The position numbers and the translations under genes are program-made. A stretch of 64,000 nt of DNA from an uncultured delta proteobacterium (GTDB taxonomy: Bacteria; Desulfobacterota; Desulfobacteria; Desulfobacterales; JAFDCJ01): positions 89,266 to 153,265 of the forward strand of contig CAVYNY010000015.1 of the NCBI GenBank assembly GCA_963769935.1, written 5' to 3'. How positions within the stretch are numbered: position 1 is the stretch's first letter; every line of letters starts with the position of its first letter. The notes below the pieces were generated by a model, which was not told the origin of the DNA, searched no databases, and worked only from the letters and a program-made list of their open reading frames with translations. This document shows, piece after piece, positions 54,956-63,957 of this stretch.

Positions 54956-55014
54956 TTCGAATGGTTGAACTGCGCCGGCCGGCTTTTTGGGTCTGCACCA
55001 GCGAAGGGTTGGCC
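54956..55014 (-). other. Degenerate attC-like site
   Basis: TTCGAAT...GTTGGCC, 59 bp; just upstream of the gene starting at 54925. Confidence 0.45.
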
Positions 55015-55067
55015 GCTCCCTGTTTCAATTGAATAGCCATCTCAACTGGAATATTCGGCGGAATATT

Positions 55068-56162
55068 AGGGACGGGTATTGATATATTGGCATAATGTCA
55101 GCCCCTTAGCTTGAGTCCCTTTCCTCTAATAATCTTCTCGCCCCGTTTTACCGACTGGCTGGCCGTAGGTTGTGAAATGCCAAGCCTTTTGGAAAGCTCC
55201 AAGGTGCTGATGCCAAGTTCCCGAGCTGCCCAGTAGCATAACACGCTGCGTGCTTCCACCGTATCCGGGTACCGACCCCGGCGGGTTACGATCTCCGGCT
55301 TCAAATTCAATAGGGTTGCCACTTGATCAACTAACCAATTAAAGTCATAGCCTTGGTCCAGATACTGGTAGCGCCGCTCTAACTGCTGCCGGCAGCTTTC
55401 TAAAACCTCTTTCACAAAATCGCCGTCACCTAAGATACGTTCGTCTCCTTTAATCCGGTCTTGCCCCCCGCGCGCTGCTTTGGCCGCCACCCAACCGCCA
55501 AGGCTGCGAATTAGACCGCCTCCAACCAATTCAGGCCTTTTACCGTCTCTAACTCCTTTCTCTACAAATTCGCTGTATGAGCGACGCGCTACAGAGGTCT
55601 TGACACCAAACAGAGACAAAATATATTCCGTGTTTTGCCATTCATTGGGCCATTTGTCCATTAATGCACTGTGGCCTGCATAGCGATAACTCTTCAAGCT
55701 TTTATAATCCGCCACAAGCTTGGCACGCAATGGGTTCAGGTGGATGTAACGGACCAACTCCATTAAATAAGGATCTTCCTGGCAAAGAATCGATTTGTAC
55801 CGATTCTGAAAAAGATGGCCATGACGGCGGTGCCGTCGGTTAAATTGTACAGCATACCCAGTCAAAAGCCTTCTCATGACCACGCTGATCGGCGTAAGAC
55901 CCGTGCGCAGCAACAGGTGGGCGTGATTGGGGATCAAAGCCCATGCAAAACAATCGGTTTGCGTCTCAGTCAACACCTGTCCTAGCCGCTTTAAAAAGGA
56001 ATCACGATCTTCATCGTCCCAGAAGATTTTCCGGCGCTCGATTCCGCGAATTATTATATGGTGCAGCGCACCCGCAGCATCAATTCTGGCTTTTCGTGGC
56101 ATGTCTGTTCCAATAGCCGCAAAACTTCCGTCTGTCAATCAATAAATCAATACCCGTCCCCC
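55068..56162 (-). mobile_element. Full-length Y1/RAYT-type element (transposase CDS 55098..56102)
   Basis: HHIIIRG, PNHAHLL (HUH), GHLFQNRY and YIHLNP motifs; C-terminal HTH; about 20-bp inverted termini. Confidence 0.88.
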
Positions 56163-56169
56163 TACATCC

Positions 56170-57369
56170 CACAAAAAATTGGCCTCAAATATCGGCTCGA
56201 TTACCAGTTTGGTCGCCATCTGGCAAACGCGGTCAAAAATAACCGGAACCCCAAGCGGCCTTTTCTCAGGTTTGCCCGGTTTGTCGATATAGCACCGCAG
56301 CACTGGCTGCGGCCGGTACCGCTCGCTTTTTAATTGCTCGCGGACTTCTGCCAGAAATTGATCCACACCAATTACATCCTCGATGTATTCAAAATCCTGC
56401 CGATCGACTCCAGGTGCACCCTTGTTGGCCTTGACGCGCTTCCAGGCCTCCAATACAACATCTTTACGATAGATCTTATCGTAAAGAGCCCCGAATCTCC
56501 TATCCAGCGACTGCTTCGCTGCATGGGACAGTTTAGACTGCAAGTCAGAAACTTTATTGCGCACGTTCATAGCTCCTTGAGCACTCATGCCTTCTTACTG
56601 TTAACAGATAGAAATGCAACTGGTGTTTAAACCGGTGATGATTCGGGACAGTTCGAGTTCTTGACCCGGTTGTCGCACCGTTCCCCGACGACTGCCGGTT
56701 GGGTTTTGTTAAAGCGGGGTCCCCGTAAACCCGCTCCTTATCCTCACCATCAAATCTATCCACTGTTCCGCATTTCAACTCACACCCTAAACGCGGTCGA
56801 AGTATGGCCCCACGCTCAGAGCAGGTTATGTTGTCCTGCCCGTCATCACTTCCAGGCCACTCCGACTTCCCTACGCCCATCACCTCCATCTTGCCGGTTT
56901 CACCCGACTTGATACAGGCTTACCGCAGGCGGAGACCTGCGGAGACGCTGGGATCTCAGGTCTTTCCTCCATTATCTGTCACCGCATGCCGTTGGCCTTA
57001 CCCCGGGTCCCTACCAGGTGCGCATACCCTTTGCTTCCCTGTTAGCTCTGGCCTTCTCCCAAATTATAGAGGATCGGCGCGTATCCCTGCTTTGCAGGGT
57101 TTATCCCTCAATCGGACTCTCCCAGCTATAGCCGTCCGATCACATCTTACGAGGCTGCACCATTCGCGTGATGCTACGGCCTGCGGTTTTGGCCGGCACC
57201 CCTGACTGGGTAAAACCCGCATGTCCTGCGAGCCGTCTCGGTACCGTGTCGGGGCAAGTTCAGCCCGCGCGTTACCACGCGAACCCGCCCTCTGCCTACA
57301 TATCCATAAGGGCAACTGATATGATAACCTCCTTTCAGGTTACTAGATAATGGTCTCGCGACCTCGTAC
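56170..57369 (-). mobile_element. Group II intron, 5' half (ribozyme region plus truncated RT/maturase)
   Basis: AWKRVKANKGAPGVD and RPLGVP.I.DRV.Q motifs; about 800 nt structured leader starting GTACG; cut off at the Y1 element. Confidence 0.82.
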
Positions 57370-57612
57370 ATAATTAAGATGTGATATACATATAAAGAGC
57401 AACAGGGCAGGAAATCATAGATACTGCTTTTTTTCCTGCATTCAGCTGTTATTGCTCGTCAAGCGTGAGATTTTCCTACGGACCGCTGGCGATAAATCTC
57501 ACTACAGCCTGCCGAGCTTGAGAAAGGACACCTCCCTATCCATAGCAAAATATGCTATGGAACCAGTAGACAAGGGTCTAACATTAATTTTATAGGATTT
57601 AGGAGGTGTCCC

Positions 57613-58629
57613 ATGGAAACATACGCTGGAATTGATTTGCATTCAAGTAATAATTTTATTGGAATCATCGACGGCAACGATAAGAGGCTTTATGGCAAGC
57701 GGCATTGCAACCGGCTGGAGGAAGTCTTGAAGGCGCTGGAACCGTTTAAGGAAAACCTTAAGGCGGTGGTAATCGAATCCACGTTCAATTGGTATTGGAT
57801 GGTCGACGGCCTGCAGGACAATGGCTACGAGGTTCATTTGGCTAATCCCTCGGCAATCAAACAATACGAGGGACTGAAGCATACCGATGATCCCTGGGAT
57901 GCATTTTGGTTGGCGCACATGTACCGCTTGAACCTGCTGGCTGAAGGATACATCTACCCCAAGGAGAATCGAGCGGTAAGGGATTTGTTACGCCGCAGGC
58001 TTTTATTTGTGCGACAGCGAACGGCGCAGATCTTGAGTCTGCAGAGTATGGTCAGCAGAAATCTGGGTTTTAAGATATCCAACAATGAAATCAAGAAACT
58101 GAGCGCCATAGATGTTGCAGATCTGTTCGATTGTCCGGATTTAGTATTGATGGCCACCAACAGTTGGGCGACGATTGAATTTTTGAAGCACATTATTAGA
58201 GGCATTGAAAAGCGTGTCATGTCACAGGCCAAGCTGCGCAAGGAATTTGCAAAGTTGCTTACGATTCCGGGGATAGGCAAGATTTTAGCGCTGACCATCA
58301 TGCTGGAAGTCGGGGATATTGGACGTTTTGCTACAGTTGGTGACTATTCTTCCTACTGTCGATGTGTGCAAAGTAAGAGAATATCCAATGGCAAGAAAAA
58401 AGGTGAGAACAACAAGAAAAATGGCAACAAGTACCTGGCCTGGGCCTATGTGGAGGCGGCCAACTTTGCCAAAAGATATTGTCCCAAGGCACACAGTTTT
58501 TATCAGAGCAAAAAGGCGAGAAGCAAGAATGTGGTAGCAATCAAGGCATTGAGCAACAAGCTGTCTCGGGCCTCTTACTACATCATGCGCGATCAGGTTG
58601 CCTTCGATGAGGACAAGCTATTTAGTTAA
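57613..58629 (+). CDS. IS110-family recombinase/transposase
   Basis: GIDLH, VIES, KHTD..D (DEDD domain); TIPGIG, SYC..SNG, GNKYL.WA..EAA (Tnp20 domain). Confidence 0.92.
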   Translation: METYAGIDLHSSNNFIGIIDGNDKRLYGKRHCNRLEEVLKALEPFKENLKAVVIESTFNWYWMVDGLQDNGYEVHLANPSAIKQYEGLKHTDDPWDAFWLAHMYRLNLLAEGYIYPKENRAVRDLLRRRLLFVRQRTAQILSLQSMVSRNLGFKISNNEIKKLSAIDVADLFDCPDLVLMATNSWATIEFLKHIIRGIEKRVMSQAKLRKEFAKLLTIPGIGKILALTIMLEVGDIGRFATVGDYSSYCRCVQSKRISNGKKKGENNKKNGNKYLAWAYVEAANFAKRYCPKAHSFYQSKKARSKNVVAIKALSNKLSRASYYIMRDQVAFDEDKLFS

Positions 58630-58636
58630 TCGGTTT

Positions 58637-59092
58637 GGGTGCGGCAGTCAACCGGATAAGGGGTTGGTATTCAACCACCAGCTTTGATTGGCAGCTGCCG
58701 CACCCAGCTAATCGATCAAAGTTGATTGCCGATGATACATCGATCGGCCTTAAAAGACACCAATATTTGAGCGACTAAAAAGGCAGGTGCGTATGCGATA
58801 AGAGTTGGAGTGCGGCAGTGAGCCGGTATAGGGGTTGGCACTAAACCATTAGATGTGATTGGCAGCTGCTGCACTCGCCAATAATAACCAGACAGCGATC
58901 GCTTTAGATCTCGATTCGCCTATGCCGTGAGTCCATAAGGGGTTGGCTAATAACCACAAGATTTGTAACACATCCAATTGAACACGGTATGGAACCGAAG
59001 AATTTCTGGGGTCCCAAGCGGACCAGGGGCGGTGTTTTCAAGCCTTGAGCTTAAAACACAAATGCCTTGAGCCTGATGGGTGACTGATGCGG
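58637..59092 (+). ncRNA. Candidate bridge/seekRNA with repeated internal-loop hairpins
   Basis: 69-nt units at 58637..58705 and 58808..58876, and a related unit at 58924..58988, downstream of IS110. Confidence 0.62.
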
Positions 59093-59182
59093 ATCAGAAA
59101 ATACTAACCGTAAGCCAATAAGAAAGAAATAGCGGGCGCGAAAAGGAGAAAAGGCGACACTGGGCTGAGGAGCGCTATAAAC

Positions 59183-59293
59183 TTGATGGATTCCTAAAAA
59201 GCCTGATCTTTATCTTAAGACCATCAGCAGCACAAACCATCGCCTGCGTTCAAAAGCTAACCCAGGAGCACGGGCTTTTTAGGAATCCATCAA
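59183..59293. repeat. 111-bp miniature element with perfect 21-bp TIRs
   Basis: TTGATGGATTCCTAAAAAGCC...GGCTTTTTAGGAATCCATCAA. Confidence 0.75.
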
Positions 59294-59369
59294 TGTCAAT
59301 CAAAAACTGATTTTTTTTGATCAAGGGGGTGTTTTTTCTCTTGACAAGCCCTTTAATGGGCGACCCCCT

Positions 59370-60384
59370 TGTCCATTTTTTATAATATGATCGAACCCGA
59401 GCAGGTGACTTCTGAATAAAGTGTAGATAACTTATCACTGCACTATGAAGTTGTTTAGCCGATGTAATGGACTGCTTTCCAATACCGTTGTTTTTCAGAT
59501 CATTCCAAACCCGTTCATCCGGATTTAATTCCGGAGAATATGGCAGGCAGGAAAAAAAGACGAAACCGATCTTTTATCGAATCGACAAAACGGCTTACCT
59601 TCTTTGCTTTATGTGCGGGATGTCCATCTACTATGAGAAAGACCATACGGTCGACACCATGAATAAGACGCTTGATAAACTCGATAAACCGGGCGGCTCC
59701 CACCCGCCCTTTGACTGTCATAAATCGAAATTCTCCTTGCGCGCTGACGGCCGAAATCAGATTCAATCCGAAGCGCGCCCCTGTACTGCTGACTACCGGC
59801 GTCTTGCCTTTTATTGCCCAGGTGGTTCCAGCATGATGGTCAGATCGGATCCCCGCTTCATCTCCAAAGAAAATCAAGGCCTTATTGCGCCGAGCCAGTG
59901 CTCGAATGCGAGGATATTCCTCTTCCAACCACTTCTGGACCTGTTCAGGTCTTTGCTGGTATGCCCGCCAGACCGGACGCTGAGGCGTCAAACCCAACTG
60001 AACCAGCAAACGGCAGACCGATGCCTTACTCAGTTTAATCCCAAACTTCTGAAAAATGACCTGTCCCACCATCTTGGCGGTCCAAAGCGCAAAGGTGAAC
60101 TTCAGCTGCAAGGGGTTTTTCATGGTTACCGTGTTGTAAACCCATCGAATGGCCTTGGCATCAAGCTTCGGCTTGCGACCTCCTCGCTTTCGAGCATCCA
60201 GCGCTGCCCATCCGCCATTACGATAAAGCGCCAACCATCCGTACATGGTCACTCTGTTGATGCCCAAGGCCTTGGCTACAAGTTCAGGGCTTTGTCCATC
60301 CTGTACGCTGGATACTCCGCGTTTTCGCAGTTCGGTCAATGTCTTGTGAGTAAGTCGTCTTGCATCCATATCTTTCTTTTTCAT
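59370..60384 (-). mobile_element. IS630-family transposase, frameshifted near 59545 and probably 3'-truncated
   Basis: HTH; FGDEAG and [19 protein letters not shown] in the shifted frame. Confidence 0.85.
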
Positions 60385-60611
60385 GGATGCTGTTGTAGCA
60401 TAGTAATTCTAGTTATGTCAATACAATTCTGAGACAGTTAATATTTCTCCTCGACAATATCTGATATAAAGCGCCTTCATATTCGATTCGCCATACACAA
60501 ATCATAGTACCTTATTTGTAAGAAAGAATAGGGTCTCAAATCTTGATTAGTGATTAACTGGCATTTTTTTAATCACAAATCAAGGTTTGACCCTGTTCTT
60601 TTCCCCCTTGA

Positions 60612-62955
60612 TTATACACGCGCCCTCGCTCTTTCTCGCGCCTGAAGCTTGGCCTGCACCTGGGAATATAGCCGCGCTTCCTGATTTTCTTGATCCTTAA
60701 TGCAAACTGCCAATGCATATGGTTCAAGAGTTGCGCTATGAGGTTCTCCCCACGGAAAATCATTTCGGGTGATAACAATAAATAGGCGATTTTTTAGCAG
60801 CTTTGATCGACTATTAAACTGGGTGAATCTCCAATTTGCGGCTTGAACGGTACCTTTTCCGCGGATGCTGCTGCTGATGTTTCGATTGCTTAATTCGGGG
60901 ATATTGTCGTATTCATTCTTTTCAGTTGCCTTATTGAACATTGTTGAAACAACGTTAAGATTTTCGGCAGACAACAAGCTTGAAATCTATCCGACTTGAT
61001 TTATAGGAAACCCGGGTTGATCGCACATAGGGCGTGTAGCTCATACCAATGGAAATTTCGCGCGGACGTCTTCCTTTGCTTAAAAAATCTTCAGGGATAG
61101 GGATTTCATAGAAATGGTGGCTTTTATTGGGGATTTGCCCAGTAGCAACCATGGTTACTTCGTTTTCCAAAGATCTAAATAGAGCGCGCGAATCCACTTG
61201 CCCATAACCACAGATTTTGAGACACATTTCCGGGTCTTCAATAAGCACTCTACATGATTCAGGAATTGTTGCGTGAGAGACAAGTAATGCCCTTATAACA
61301 TCTCTATTGGCTTCAGGGTACACAGATAAAATCGAAGCCGCTAAGTGTGCAATATGGGGCGCAGCCATGCTTGTACCGCTTTCATCGGCCAAGAGTCTGC
61401 CATAAGCAAAATCTCTGCTGGTCGATAACTCACCTAAGCCGCTATTTGAAACTAAAACATTTGCTCCAGCCCGTGTATTAACGGCCCAATTTCCGCCATA
61501 GGAAATTAATTCTGGTTTGATTGCCCCTCCTATTGAATGGCCGCGCCTAGAAAATGGGGAGGGTTGATTATGTCGAGCGATAGGCACTTCAGCCGGATCT
61601 CCTGAGTATCGTTGGCTATTAGTGGTCTGATCATGGCGAGCCAGACTACCCACGGTTATCACGTTAAGTGCTGGAGCTGGCTCCAATATAGCCCACGCGT
61701 CCTCTGCCATGTAGTACGGATATCCTTCTTTCCATTCCAAACCATCTTTTTGGGAACCAGGAACATTTCCTGCCGATACTATAAACAGAACTCCAAGTTC
61801 TCTGGAAAGGGTATCTAAAACGTAGGATAATCCCTTTAAATGGCCCCCAAGATATGGTTTTCGAATATCGCCGAAAGATAAATTGAATATCCTACAACCA
61901 TATGATTCATGAAAATATCTTACGGCCTCATCAATCTGTTTTTCCACAAAACCAGTTGTATTTTCATTATTTTCATCAAGGATTCGTCCACTAAAGATCC
62001 GGAGCCTCGGGGTCAGCTCCCCAGTTTGGATTGCGGTTTCAATATCGCCATAAAGACCCAAGCCGGCAACAAGTGTACCATGTCCATGCTCATCAGTGGC
62101 ATCTTTCCCAGGTAAAAAGCTTTGTGCATCGCCTACTGCCGGGGCAAGATACGGATGCCCTGTTGTCAAACCACTATCCAAAATTACCAAACCTGGAGCA
62201 TTTTCTGGGGGCGGAGGAATTTCTGGAAAATCTTTTATATCTGCAAGTAGCAGACTTAAATCAAGGCCATATTTGGGTGGCAGATCTAAAGTGCGGATAT
62301 CACGATGCTGCAGCATGGCATTGGCCTGCTGAAGATTGCAACGAACACGAAAAAGGCTCAGACCCGGCTGTTTGACACTGTCTATTAAGCCAATACCGTG
62401 TTCTTTTAGCCAAGCTTCAAATTTATTCCACAACCGAACACGTTCGTCCTGACGGTCCTCAATCGGCCATAGCTCAATATCTATGATAAAAGGCTCTTGT
62501 TCAGGAAACCCTTCCGAGGCTAATGCCCAGCCAGTACGGTCCACAGGGCTCCATCGGTCAATGCTTTGAAGAGCATAAAGCACTTGTTTATACTTTACAT
62601 CCTCTCCACCTGCCAATGAAGCCAGCCGGGCCTCAAAAGATTCGAGTGCAGCTGTACTTACGAATGCAACTATGATTTCGTCACCTTCCTGGCTGACAAA
62701 TTCGATTTCAGGAGAGATATTCCTCAGCGTGTCTGGATCAAACCCCTTATTTACAGTAAACCGAAATAAGCGTCGGTCATCAAACCCTCCGATATCCTCA
62801 TCTGTTTGATCTATTGCACTTCCGAGACGATCTATGAGCATTCGTCCGTGCGCAGGAGGATCGGCCGGCGGTACAAAAAATGGTCTTCCTCCAGGTCTCT
62901 TTTCGGTAACTGGTTCTTCACGCCTAAGGGGCAAGTGCGGAAAGGATTCCTCCAT
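60612..62955 (-). CDS. ietS: S8 subtilase-like peptidase (IetS-like), one frameshift near 60970
   Basis: ILDSG, HGHGT, SAGN and SGTSMAAP motifs; tail continues in ORF 60612..60977. Confidence 0.82.
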
Positions 62956-62961
62956 GTTATA

Positions 62962-63957
62962 TTAGCTCCATTTCAATCGGGCCTTTCTAGCATCTTCCCT
63001 GCGTATTGCCGACTGAATATGACGTTCGCTCAAAAATTCGTTTCCTGAAAGGACCATATCTTTTGCCGCACGGCGCAAAACCCTTTCCACGTCAGCATGA
63101 CTCATGCCTTTCAATTGGCTAACAAATGCAGCCTCCTCAATTTCAAAATTTCGTCTTAAGCCTTTCAATTTTACTGATAGCAGGCGACGCAACTGCTCAA
63201 TATTTGGCAGATCAAAAATCAACACTTCATCAAAACGACGCCAAACCGCTGAGTCCAAAATTTGATCATGATTAGTTGCTGCAATCAAAAGGCTTTTTCC
63301 CTCAAAACCATCCAACATCTGCAGAAAGGCATTTACAACTCGCTTTAATTCGCCATGCTCCGCTGCATCATCTCGCTCCTTTCCTAAAGCATCGAATTCG
63401 TCAAAAAGAACCACCATCGGAACTGATGATATAAAATCGAATACTTGCCGCAAATTGGATGCAGTTTCGCCAAGATATGATGAAACGACACTATCAATTC
63501 GAACAATCGATAAAGGGAGACCAAGCTCGCTAGCAACGACTTCTGCTGTTAAGGTTTTACCACATCCAGGTGGTCCACAAAAAAGCAGCCTATCAACGGG
63601 GTATAAACCATAGCTTTTTAAAACTTCAGATTTGTGAAGTTCCTGAAGAATTTCTTCCAAAAGCGAGCTGTTTTCGTCTGATAAGACCACGTCTTCCAAT
63701 CTCCTTGTTGGCTCTTTTATAAACAGGAGTGGAATTCCTCGCTCTCGATCTTTAGGCAAATTATCATTCAATAAAAAGGGAAGTTTTTTTACTGAATTAG
63801 CACGGCCGTATAGAATTTTTTCAAGATCATTAGCTAACAGATGGTGATTTTTTGAGCGTTCTTCACGAATAACCTCTTCAGATACTTGCCGAAAAGCTTC
63901 ATGATTTCCCTCAGAACCTGTTTTTATAAGCTGTCTTAGCAATTTCCCTGATGCCAT
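62962..63957 (-). CDS. ietA: AAA ATPase (IetA-like)
   Basis: GPPGCGKT, SYLGETA.NL, FDEFDA, GELKRVVN and AVWRRFD motifs; 6 bp upstream of the S8 gene. Confidence 0.85.
   Translation of the reverse strand: MASGKLLRQLIKTGSEGNHEAFRQVSEEVIREERSKNHHLLANDLEKILYGRANSVKKLPFLLNDNLPKDRERGIPLLFIKEPTRRLEDVVLSDENSSLLEEILQELHKSEVLKSYGLYPVDRLLFCGPPGCGKTLTAEVVASELGLPLSIVRIDSVVSSYLGETASNLRQVFDFISSVPMVVLFDEFDALGKERDDAAEHGELKRVVNAFLQMLDGFEGKSLLIAATNHDQILDSAVWRRFDEVLIFDLPNIEQLRRLLSVKLKGLRRNFEIEEAAFVSQLKGMSHADVERVLRRAAKDMVLSGNEFLSERHIQSAIRREDARKARLKWS

Follow-up and report, generated by a model that had tools for sequence, protein, structure and literature searches.

Within the window, i.e., the whole 64,000-nucleotide stretch of DNA that was analysed, lies a complete insertion sequence of the IS1111 type, whose features are listed in Table 1. 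The genome holds three copies of the element, which are 99.7% alike and occupy separate sites, together with remnants of relatives. The flanks of these copies set both ends of the element at 57382 and 59360, which moves its start upstream of the position 57500 given in the earlier note. Comparison of filled and empty alleles of both site types within the same genome revealed no target-site duplication; at the first core position, the base on the left side is that of the element and the base on the right side is that of the target. As defined in the accessible part of PMC11187229, IS1111 elements carry subterminal inverted repeats of 11–13 bp with extensions of 7 nt on the left and 3 nt on the right; here, the repeats measure 11/12 nt with one bulge and one mismatch, and the extensions are 7 nt (left) and 2 nt (right). 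The non-coding stretch is 731 nt to the right of the gene and 231 nt to the left, in agreement with the long downstream region of IS1111 elements. The perfect inverted repeat inside the right end occurs in some relatives with other middles and is absent from others. Joining of the ends would place TTGACA 17 nt from TATACA, a predicted promoter that would arise on end joining, and a promoter scan of the linear element gave 1 site against 3.4 in shuffles. Contigs of four DNA runs contained no circle-junction joint, which does not show that such joints are absent. No Rfam family scored above its gathering score over positions 55000–62000, the loops lacking any match, and no relatives were found in the viral contigs searched.

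The recombinase combines a DEDD RuvC-like domain with a Transposase_20 domain that contains a serine, as is characteristic of the IS110/IS1111 superfamily. D8, E55, D93, D96, and S258 are invariant in eight aligned proteins; in the alignment, S258 falls on the catalytic serine in the ESG motif of IS621, and the serine motif reads S-N-G rather than S-G. The protein length lies inside the range of 330–350 aa stated for the IS1111 family in the available text of PMC11187229. In a conserved hairpin at 57526–57611, ACACCTCC is base-paired to the ribosome-binding site in front of the recombinase gene, which likely damps translation. An IS630 transposase gene (59515–60384, minus strand) adjoins the element; beyond it (60955–63957, minus strand) lies an AAA ATPase and S8 peptidase pair that resembles the IteAS defence system, both members scoring below the NCBIfam cut-offs.

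Table 1. Features of the insertion sequence and of its target site (positions in the window).
Feature	Position	Strand	Basis or remark
Left target half, AGATG, equal to the loop 2 guide	57377–57381	+	Sequence, copy flanks
Complete IS1111-type insertion sequence, 1,979 bp	57382–59360	+	Three near-identical copies with differing flanks
Left subterminal inverted repeat, imperfect	57389–57400	+	7 nt from end
IS110-family DEDD recombinase, 338 aa	57613–58629	+	Pfam PF01548 and PF02371; NF033542 above cut-off; alignments
Predicted target-binding loop 1	58637–58705	+	Matches sites of copies C11 and C39; family statistics
Loop 1: G-run (right-target guide)	58660–58663	+	
Loop 1: AGCTT (left-target guide), TGA core	58680–58684 (AGCTT)	+	
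Inter-loop spacer	58706–58807	+	No significant fold (z = 0.2)
Predicted target-binding loop 2	58808–58876	+	Matches site of window copy; family statistics
Loop 2: G-run	58831–58834	+	
Loop 2: AGATG, TGA core	58851–58855 (AGATG)	+	
Third related hairpin, ancestral	58922–58990	+	Guide-like strand AGATT in 51/80 site records
Predicted donor-binding multi-branch loop	59000–59083	+	Matches to joined ends
Candidate right-donor guide	59000–59006	+	
Predicted left-donor guide plus core, ATGGGTGA	59076–59083	+	Equals last five bases of right end plus first three of left end
Perfect 21-bp inverted repeat inside right end	59183–59293	.	Variable among relatives
TTGACA, predicted −35 of junction promoter	59341–59346	+	Prediction
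Right subterminal inverted repeat	59348–59358	+	2 nt from end
Right target half, CGACCCC	59361–59367	+	Sequence, copy flanks

Directly 3' of the recombinase gene, whose stop codon ends at 58629, two 69-nt units follow each other 171 bp apart with 54 of 69 positions identical, and both 11-bp outer stems are as first described. Each predicted loop consists, in order, of the outer stem, AACC.., the G-run plus TTGG, a short hairpin, AGNNN-TGA-TTGG, and the outer stem; the guide is the five nucleotides before TGA on the 3' strand, three of which truly vary. The earlier note had placed most differences between the units in the left and right loop strands; the variable guide is only about 5 nt long and lies on the 3' strand. 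The G-run can pair with the CCCC that follows the core on the right, and it precedes AGNNN-TG in both loops, which is the IS1111 order (top-strand guide 5' of bottom-strand guide). The bottom-strand guide was tested statistically; the top-strand (right-target) guide is a candidate assigned by its complementarity to a site that scarcely varies, and, being nearly invariant itself, it offers one compensatory case (L174) and one counter-case (L146).

Folding z-scores were −5.2 for unit 1, −3.0 for unit 2, and 0.0 for the third unit (200 shuffles each). Covariation was assessed in 65 aligned units (the two of the window plus 63 of relatives, chosen out of a non-redundant set of 66): the outer stem covaries over 12 pairs, which are 94.6% paired and show two-sided changes at 10 of 12, and the covariation score of the tested structure was reached by none of 500 shuffles. 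The inner GGTT..AACC hairpin that had been suggested is unsupported by covariation because none of its four pairs changes on both sides; an alternative inner register, UGG/CCA, with three pairs, is equally possible and leaves the G-run free. Two of the three genomic copies have exactly the same tandem repeat and the third differs by one base, and contigs from a run of another study cover 58484–58710 and 58681–58966 with no differing letters; the repeat is thus no assembly artefact. Contigs from the run that may be the source of the assembly span 57372–58966 without differences. The distance from loop to loop ranges from 111 to 311 nt among relatives. A short TATGCGATAAG-like motif (58786–58803) just before loop 2 recurs in the spacers of two-loop relatives across clades and could be an internal promoter or processing signal.

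The third related unit described in the earlier note exists, but its start was misplaced at 58924: the quoted motif is at 58928 and its stem at 58922. The 3' motif TGATTGG, which units 1 and 2 share, is missing from this hairpin, and one-loop relatives carry the hairpin too. Tried as an independent guide, it was rejected, with exact matches at 6 of 80 sites versus 4.1 and unique matches at 3 of 80 versus 2.4 (p 0.14–0.77); it is an ancestral element and, as judged by its match record, no independent guide. Downstream of it, in the predicted donor loop, ATGGGTGA matches the joined ends at 8/8 positions, though it is invariant; on the candidate right-donor strand, the third position is A only where the paired position of the left end is T (14/24 versus 0/35 distinct elements, the relatives not being independent). 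Consensus folding yielded no convincing structure for the donor region. It might be supposed that the two hairpins are simply one ordinary target loop and one donor loop, since known bridge RNAs have two similar loops, as described in the accessible sections of PMC11208160. Neither guide, however, matches the right end of the element, whereas the separate strand at 59076–59083 does, and one-loop, two-loop, and loop-less relatives all conserve it; what is found is two predicted target loops plus a third hairpin. An ordinary pair of target and donor loop can be regarded as scarcely credible.

The number of loops was compared over 159 loci, namely 76 together with the best 80 of 255 confirmed loci and three own copies, of which 133 could be read as far as the third hairpin or donor loop; extra loops that were truncated or degenerate did not count as present. 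In these 133 loci, the unit count varies (one full loop in 66, two in 63, none in 4), and the number of full loops ahead of the donor loop never exceeds two; the 109 distinct sequences among them comprise 56 one-loop, 52 two-loop, and 1 loop-less arrangement, and the two guides are unequal in 50 of the 52 distinct two-loop arrays. A tree built from 101 transposase genes requires 12 changes for the two-loop state, which occurs in three starred groups that also contain one-loop members; one loop is the state scored for the deepest branches, and gains and losses of loops are indistinguishable. Guides of close relatives differ by 1–2 substitutions. Across 15 close pairs, 11/72 positions (15%) of the three variable guide bases differ, compared with 19/672 (2.8%) at other anchored loop positions and 192/3708 (5.2%) at third codon positions, and this faster change suggests selection for change at the variable guide bases.

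Several relatives depart from the common layout. L003, L004, L005, and L067, all in one genome, have an intact gene and donor loop but have lost every target loop together with the third hairpin through the same deletion; they lie at four places with family-type sites (AGACT, AGATC), and a two-loop relative, L017, is present in the same genome. Movement without an own target loop therefore happens, and the arrangement suggests that these elements are guided in trans. L115 and L118 carry an additional full loop, some 1 kb downstream of their first and beyond other sequence; in L233, the 3' part of the element, including the loops, is inverted relative to the left end; and in Scalindua-group relatives (L039–L044, L072–L074), a degenerate hairpin, perhaps a decayed first loop, precedes the single full loop.

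Insertion sites were de-duplicated by guides and 14-nt left flank, leaving 42 one-loop and 38 two-loop sites, and the relation between loop sequences and flanks for which the earlier note had asked exceeds chance in both sets. At one-loop sites, the 5 nt that flank the element on the left match the guide exactly in 21/42 cases (5.5 when shuffled) and with wobble in 34/42 (11.5), p < 1e-4, so that 8/42 are without a wobble match. The signal covers positions −5 to −1 and stops there; a guide longer than 5 nt was rejected, positions −6 to −9 being at chance level. Held-out one-loop sites gave 7/14 exact matches (1.7 expected) and 10/14 wobble-compatible matches (3.3 expected). Guide>target mismatches (n = 45) include T>C 20 times, G>A 10 times, C>T 5 times, and A>G never, a spectrum expected for an RNA paired to the bottom strand. 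Over all 80 sites, the wobble (G-U/G-T) rule explains 68, the reverse rule 49, and exact matching 45; the wobble rule was picked after the data had first been seen, and the exact-match tests are independent of it.

The copies in the own genome carry the same guides and follow different ones: the copies on C11 and C39 lie at sites that read AGCTT, as does the guide of loop 1, whereas the site of the window copy reads AGATG, as does the guide of loop 2. The window copy alone is not decisive because free sites of the AG type in this genome most often read AGATG (13 versus 4 for AGCTT) and because a remnant on C10, with a cut-off loop that has an AGATG guide, could act in trans. Across the 38 two-loop sites, exact matching assigns 17 to loop 1 alone, 7 to loop 2 alone, and 14 to neither; with wobble, the counts are 18, 10, and 4, with both loops matching at 6. 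Shuffled loop 2 guides gave 2.9 loop-2-only sites by exact matching (p = 0.006) and 3.8 with wobble (p < 1e-4). When the sites were collapsed to 30 clusters at 97% identity, loop-2-only matches remained in 7/30 by exact matching (2.5 expected globally, 3.2 within clade, p = 0.007) and in 9/30 with wobble (4.9 expected within clade, p = 0.002). The loop-2-only cases (L015, L077, L088, L130, L141, L145, and the window copy) span the guides AGATG, AGATC, and AGACT in two clades; loop 2 accounts for fewer sites than loop 1. Three wider searches (401 genomes each, overlapping) and 20 further regions yielded one new two-loop element only and no new loop-2 case; since this sole held-out two-loop element sits at a loop-1 site, the loop 2 result is not independently replicated. 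One contig from sequencing-run data has the element after AGATG with another outer flank, a hint of a further loop-2 site.

These counts bear on two other ways of understanding the second loop. Loop 1 alone might work in cis, with loop-2-matching sites reached by guides that related elements in the same cell provide in trans, or through insertion at the most frequent repeat ends on a half match, and with loop 2 as a decaying spare. The loop-less elements at four places, the C10 remnant as a trans source, sites that match neither own guide (L079, L105), and second loops that are truncated or damaged in L085, L089, L125, L108, and L109 would all agree with this, as would the half-match insertion reported for IS621 in the accessible part of 10.64898/2026.08.31.748434. 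Loop 1 fails at 14/38 sites of two-loop elements and 8/42 of one-loop elements, an excess that is not significant (p = 0.086). The site of an element is nevertheless predicted better by its own loop 2 guide than by those of same-clade elements, and the loop 2 stem is kept by compensatory changes at 71–100% protein identity; this reading as a whole is unlikely. Alternatively, the two loops could divide labour within one reaction, e.g., excision or direct strand transfer versus integration, and have no alternative targets; in CazIS110-1, according to the available text of 10.1101/2025.10.25.684509, a target-loop-only RNA cooperates with the full bridge RNA. Such a division predicts equal guides, whereas the guides are nearly always unequal, 24/38 two-loop sites match exactly one loop, 66/133 loci have only one loop, and the loop that would fit is the third hairpin rather than loop 2; this explanation is very improbable.

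The targets form a family of repeat ends that share AG..YGACCCC and vary at three central bases, with YGACCCC at 68/100 right junctions. Left flanks recur among unrelated loci, and the other strand reads GGGGTC..; an inverted partner lies upstream at 16/78 loci (control 0), and a Y1 transposase match occurs in the upstream flank at 9/78 and in the downstream flank at 0/78, downstream flanks being shorter. In the own genome, 5/60 target-like sites lie within 2.5 kb of Y1 genes, a space that makes up 1.4% of the genome, which supports a link to Y1 genes weakly. With moderate confidence, the targets can be taken as putative terminal repeats of tyrosine-transposase elements (TIRtrons): the GGGGTC.. 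reading, the inverted pairs, and the nearby Y1 genes resemble TIRtrons/TIRYT as presented in the accessible parts of PMC3733652 and 10.1101/279083, whereas many target variants only partly fit the GGGGWSAS consensus published there and most sites are without a Y1 gene in the flank read. Beside the element, a gene for a Y1 tyrosine transposase with a long C-terminal extension (55098–56138, minus strand), of which the genome holds many fragments, adjoins the reverse transcriptase fragment (TIGR04416) of a broken group II intron (56139–57369, minus strand); the 5' end of this intron is located some 10 nt within the target repeat end of the element. At four more intron 5' ends in the genome, the site is empty, and three of them have an inverted partner about 1.88 kb away; the group II intron and the insertion sequence share a target family.

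The ends of the element, the two predicted loops, the matches between guides and sites, and the variation in loop number are visible in the sequence. Taken together, they are probably best explained by an IS1111-type RNA-guided insertion sequence with two predicted target loops that bear different guides, each of which would direct the recombinase to its own class of sites. The original proposal of a duplicated binding-loop module with diverged guides agrees with loop numbers of 0, 1, and 2 and with the prediction of sites beyond chance by each guide; of the proposed array-like multi-target RNA, the two targets are retained, but the array amounts to two target loops, and the third unit is not a separate guide. 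By analogy with known IS1111/IS110 biology, the 3' region would be transcribed, one recombinase dimer would bind each loop, the donor loop would form a synapse with either target loop, and strand exchange would occur at the YG core. Five runs registered as RNA held 4–10% of the sampled words, which gives no evidence either way. Two guides would cover more targets because the repeat-end family shares AG..YGACCCC yet differs at three central bases; the benefit of a second guide is thus likely a wider reach over a variable target family. A more tentative extension is that of an evolving small guide array, in which free-standing target-loop cassettes are duplicated, lost, or re-aimed under diversifying selection, cut to RNAs of about 70 nt, and shared in trans, so that the element population might track the polymorphic ends of tyrosine-transposase repeats while loop-less copies parasitise the pool.

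If both target loops work, an RNA-guided transposon would be able to gain a new target and keep the old one by duplicating and then re-aiming a loop, which is a plausible first step towards guide arrays. A two-loop RNA would also be a natural scaffold for multiplexed insertion, and with one-, two-, and zero-loop relatives in existence, the modularity of the loops and their action in trans are open to direct tests. As an editor, the system would be limited in direct use by the short effective guide (about 5 nt plus the core and CCCC).

TIGR and CRISPR arrays join a repeated scaffold and variable guides to one effector. Unlike these arrays, which contain many repeat-spacer units and acquired spacers, the element has two guides only, of about 5 nt, that change by point substitution with no sign of acquisition, its effector is a recombinase, and none of the 133 loci read exceeds two full loops before the donor loop. 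Its guides covary with the targets, as do those of a bridge RNA or seekRNA. The recombinase is only distantly related to the IS621/ISCro4 proteins (E 2e-7). IS621 and ISCro4/IS622 (PMC11208160; 10.1101/2025.05.14.653916; PDB 8WT6, 9T56), as far as the accessible portions describe them, are similar in having a target loop and a donor loop, short-core recombination, and the aligned serine; in contrast, their RNA lies upstream of the gene, with the opposite guide order and one target loop, and the bridge RNAs described so far consist of a single target loop and a single donor loop. The same accessible sources (PMC11208160; 10.1101/2025.05.14.653916) state that IS621/ISCro4-type loops work when split and note a multi-loop donor region for IS1111 members. 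In CazIS110-1, the main bound species is a target-loop-only RNA of about 77 nt, near in size to the 69-nt units; unlike them, this short RNA is, according to the available text (10.1101/2025.10.25.684509), a fragment of a single bridge RNA with the same guide. A literature search, with preprint supplements, figures, and most subscription journals outside its scope, found no natural bridge RNA with two differently aimed target loops. A close likeness is to the IS1111 elements with seekRNA (ISEc11, ISKpn4, ISPa11, ISPst6), which, in the accessible part of PMC11187229, share the long 3' non-coding region, subterminal inverted repeats (imperfect in the present element), the DEDD recombinase of 338 aa, the top-strand guide 5' of the bottom-strand guide, the lack of target duplication, and natural reprogramming between relatives. 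Those elements are described there with one target-matching seekRNA each, whereas the present element carries two predicted loops with different guides, each matching real sites, and what is new here is likely a natural two-target form of the known IS1111/IS110 bridge-RNA recombinases.
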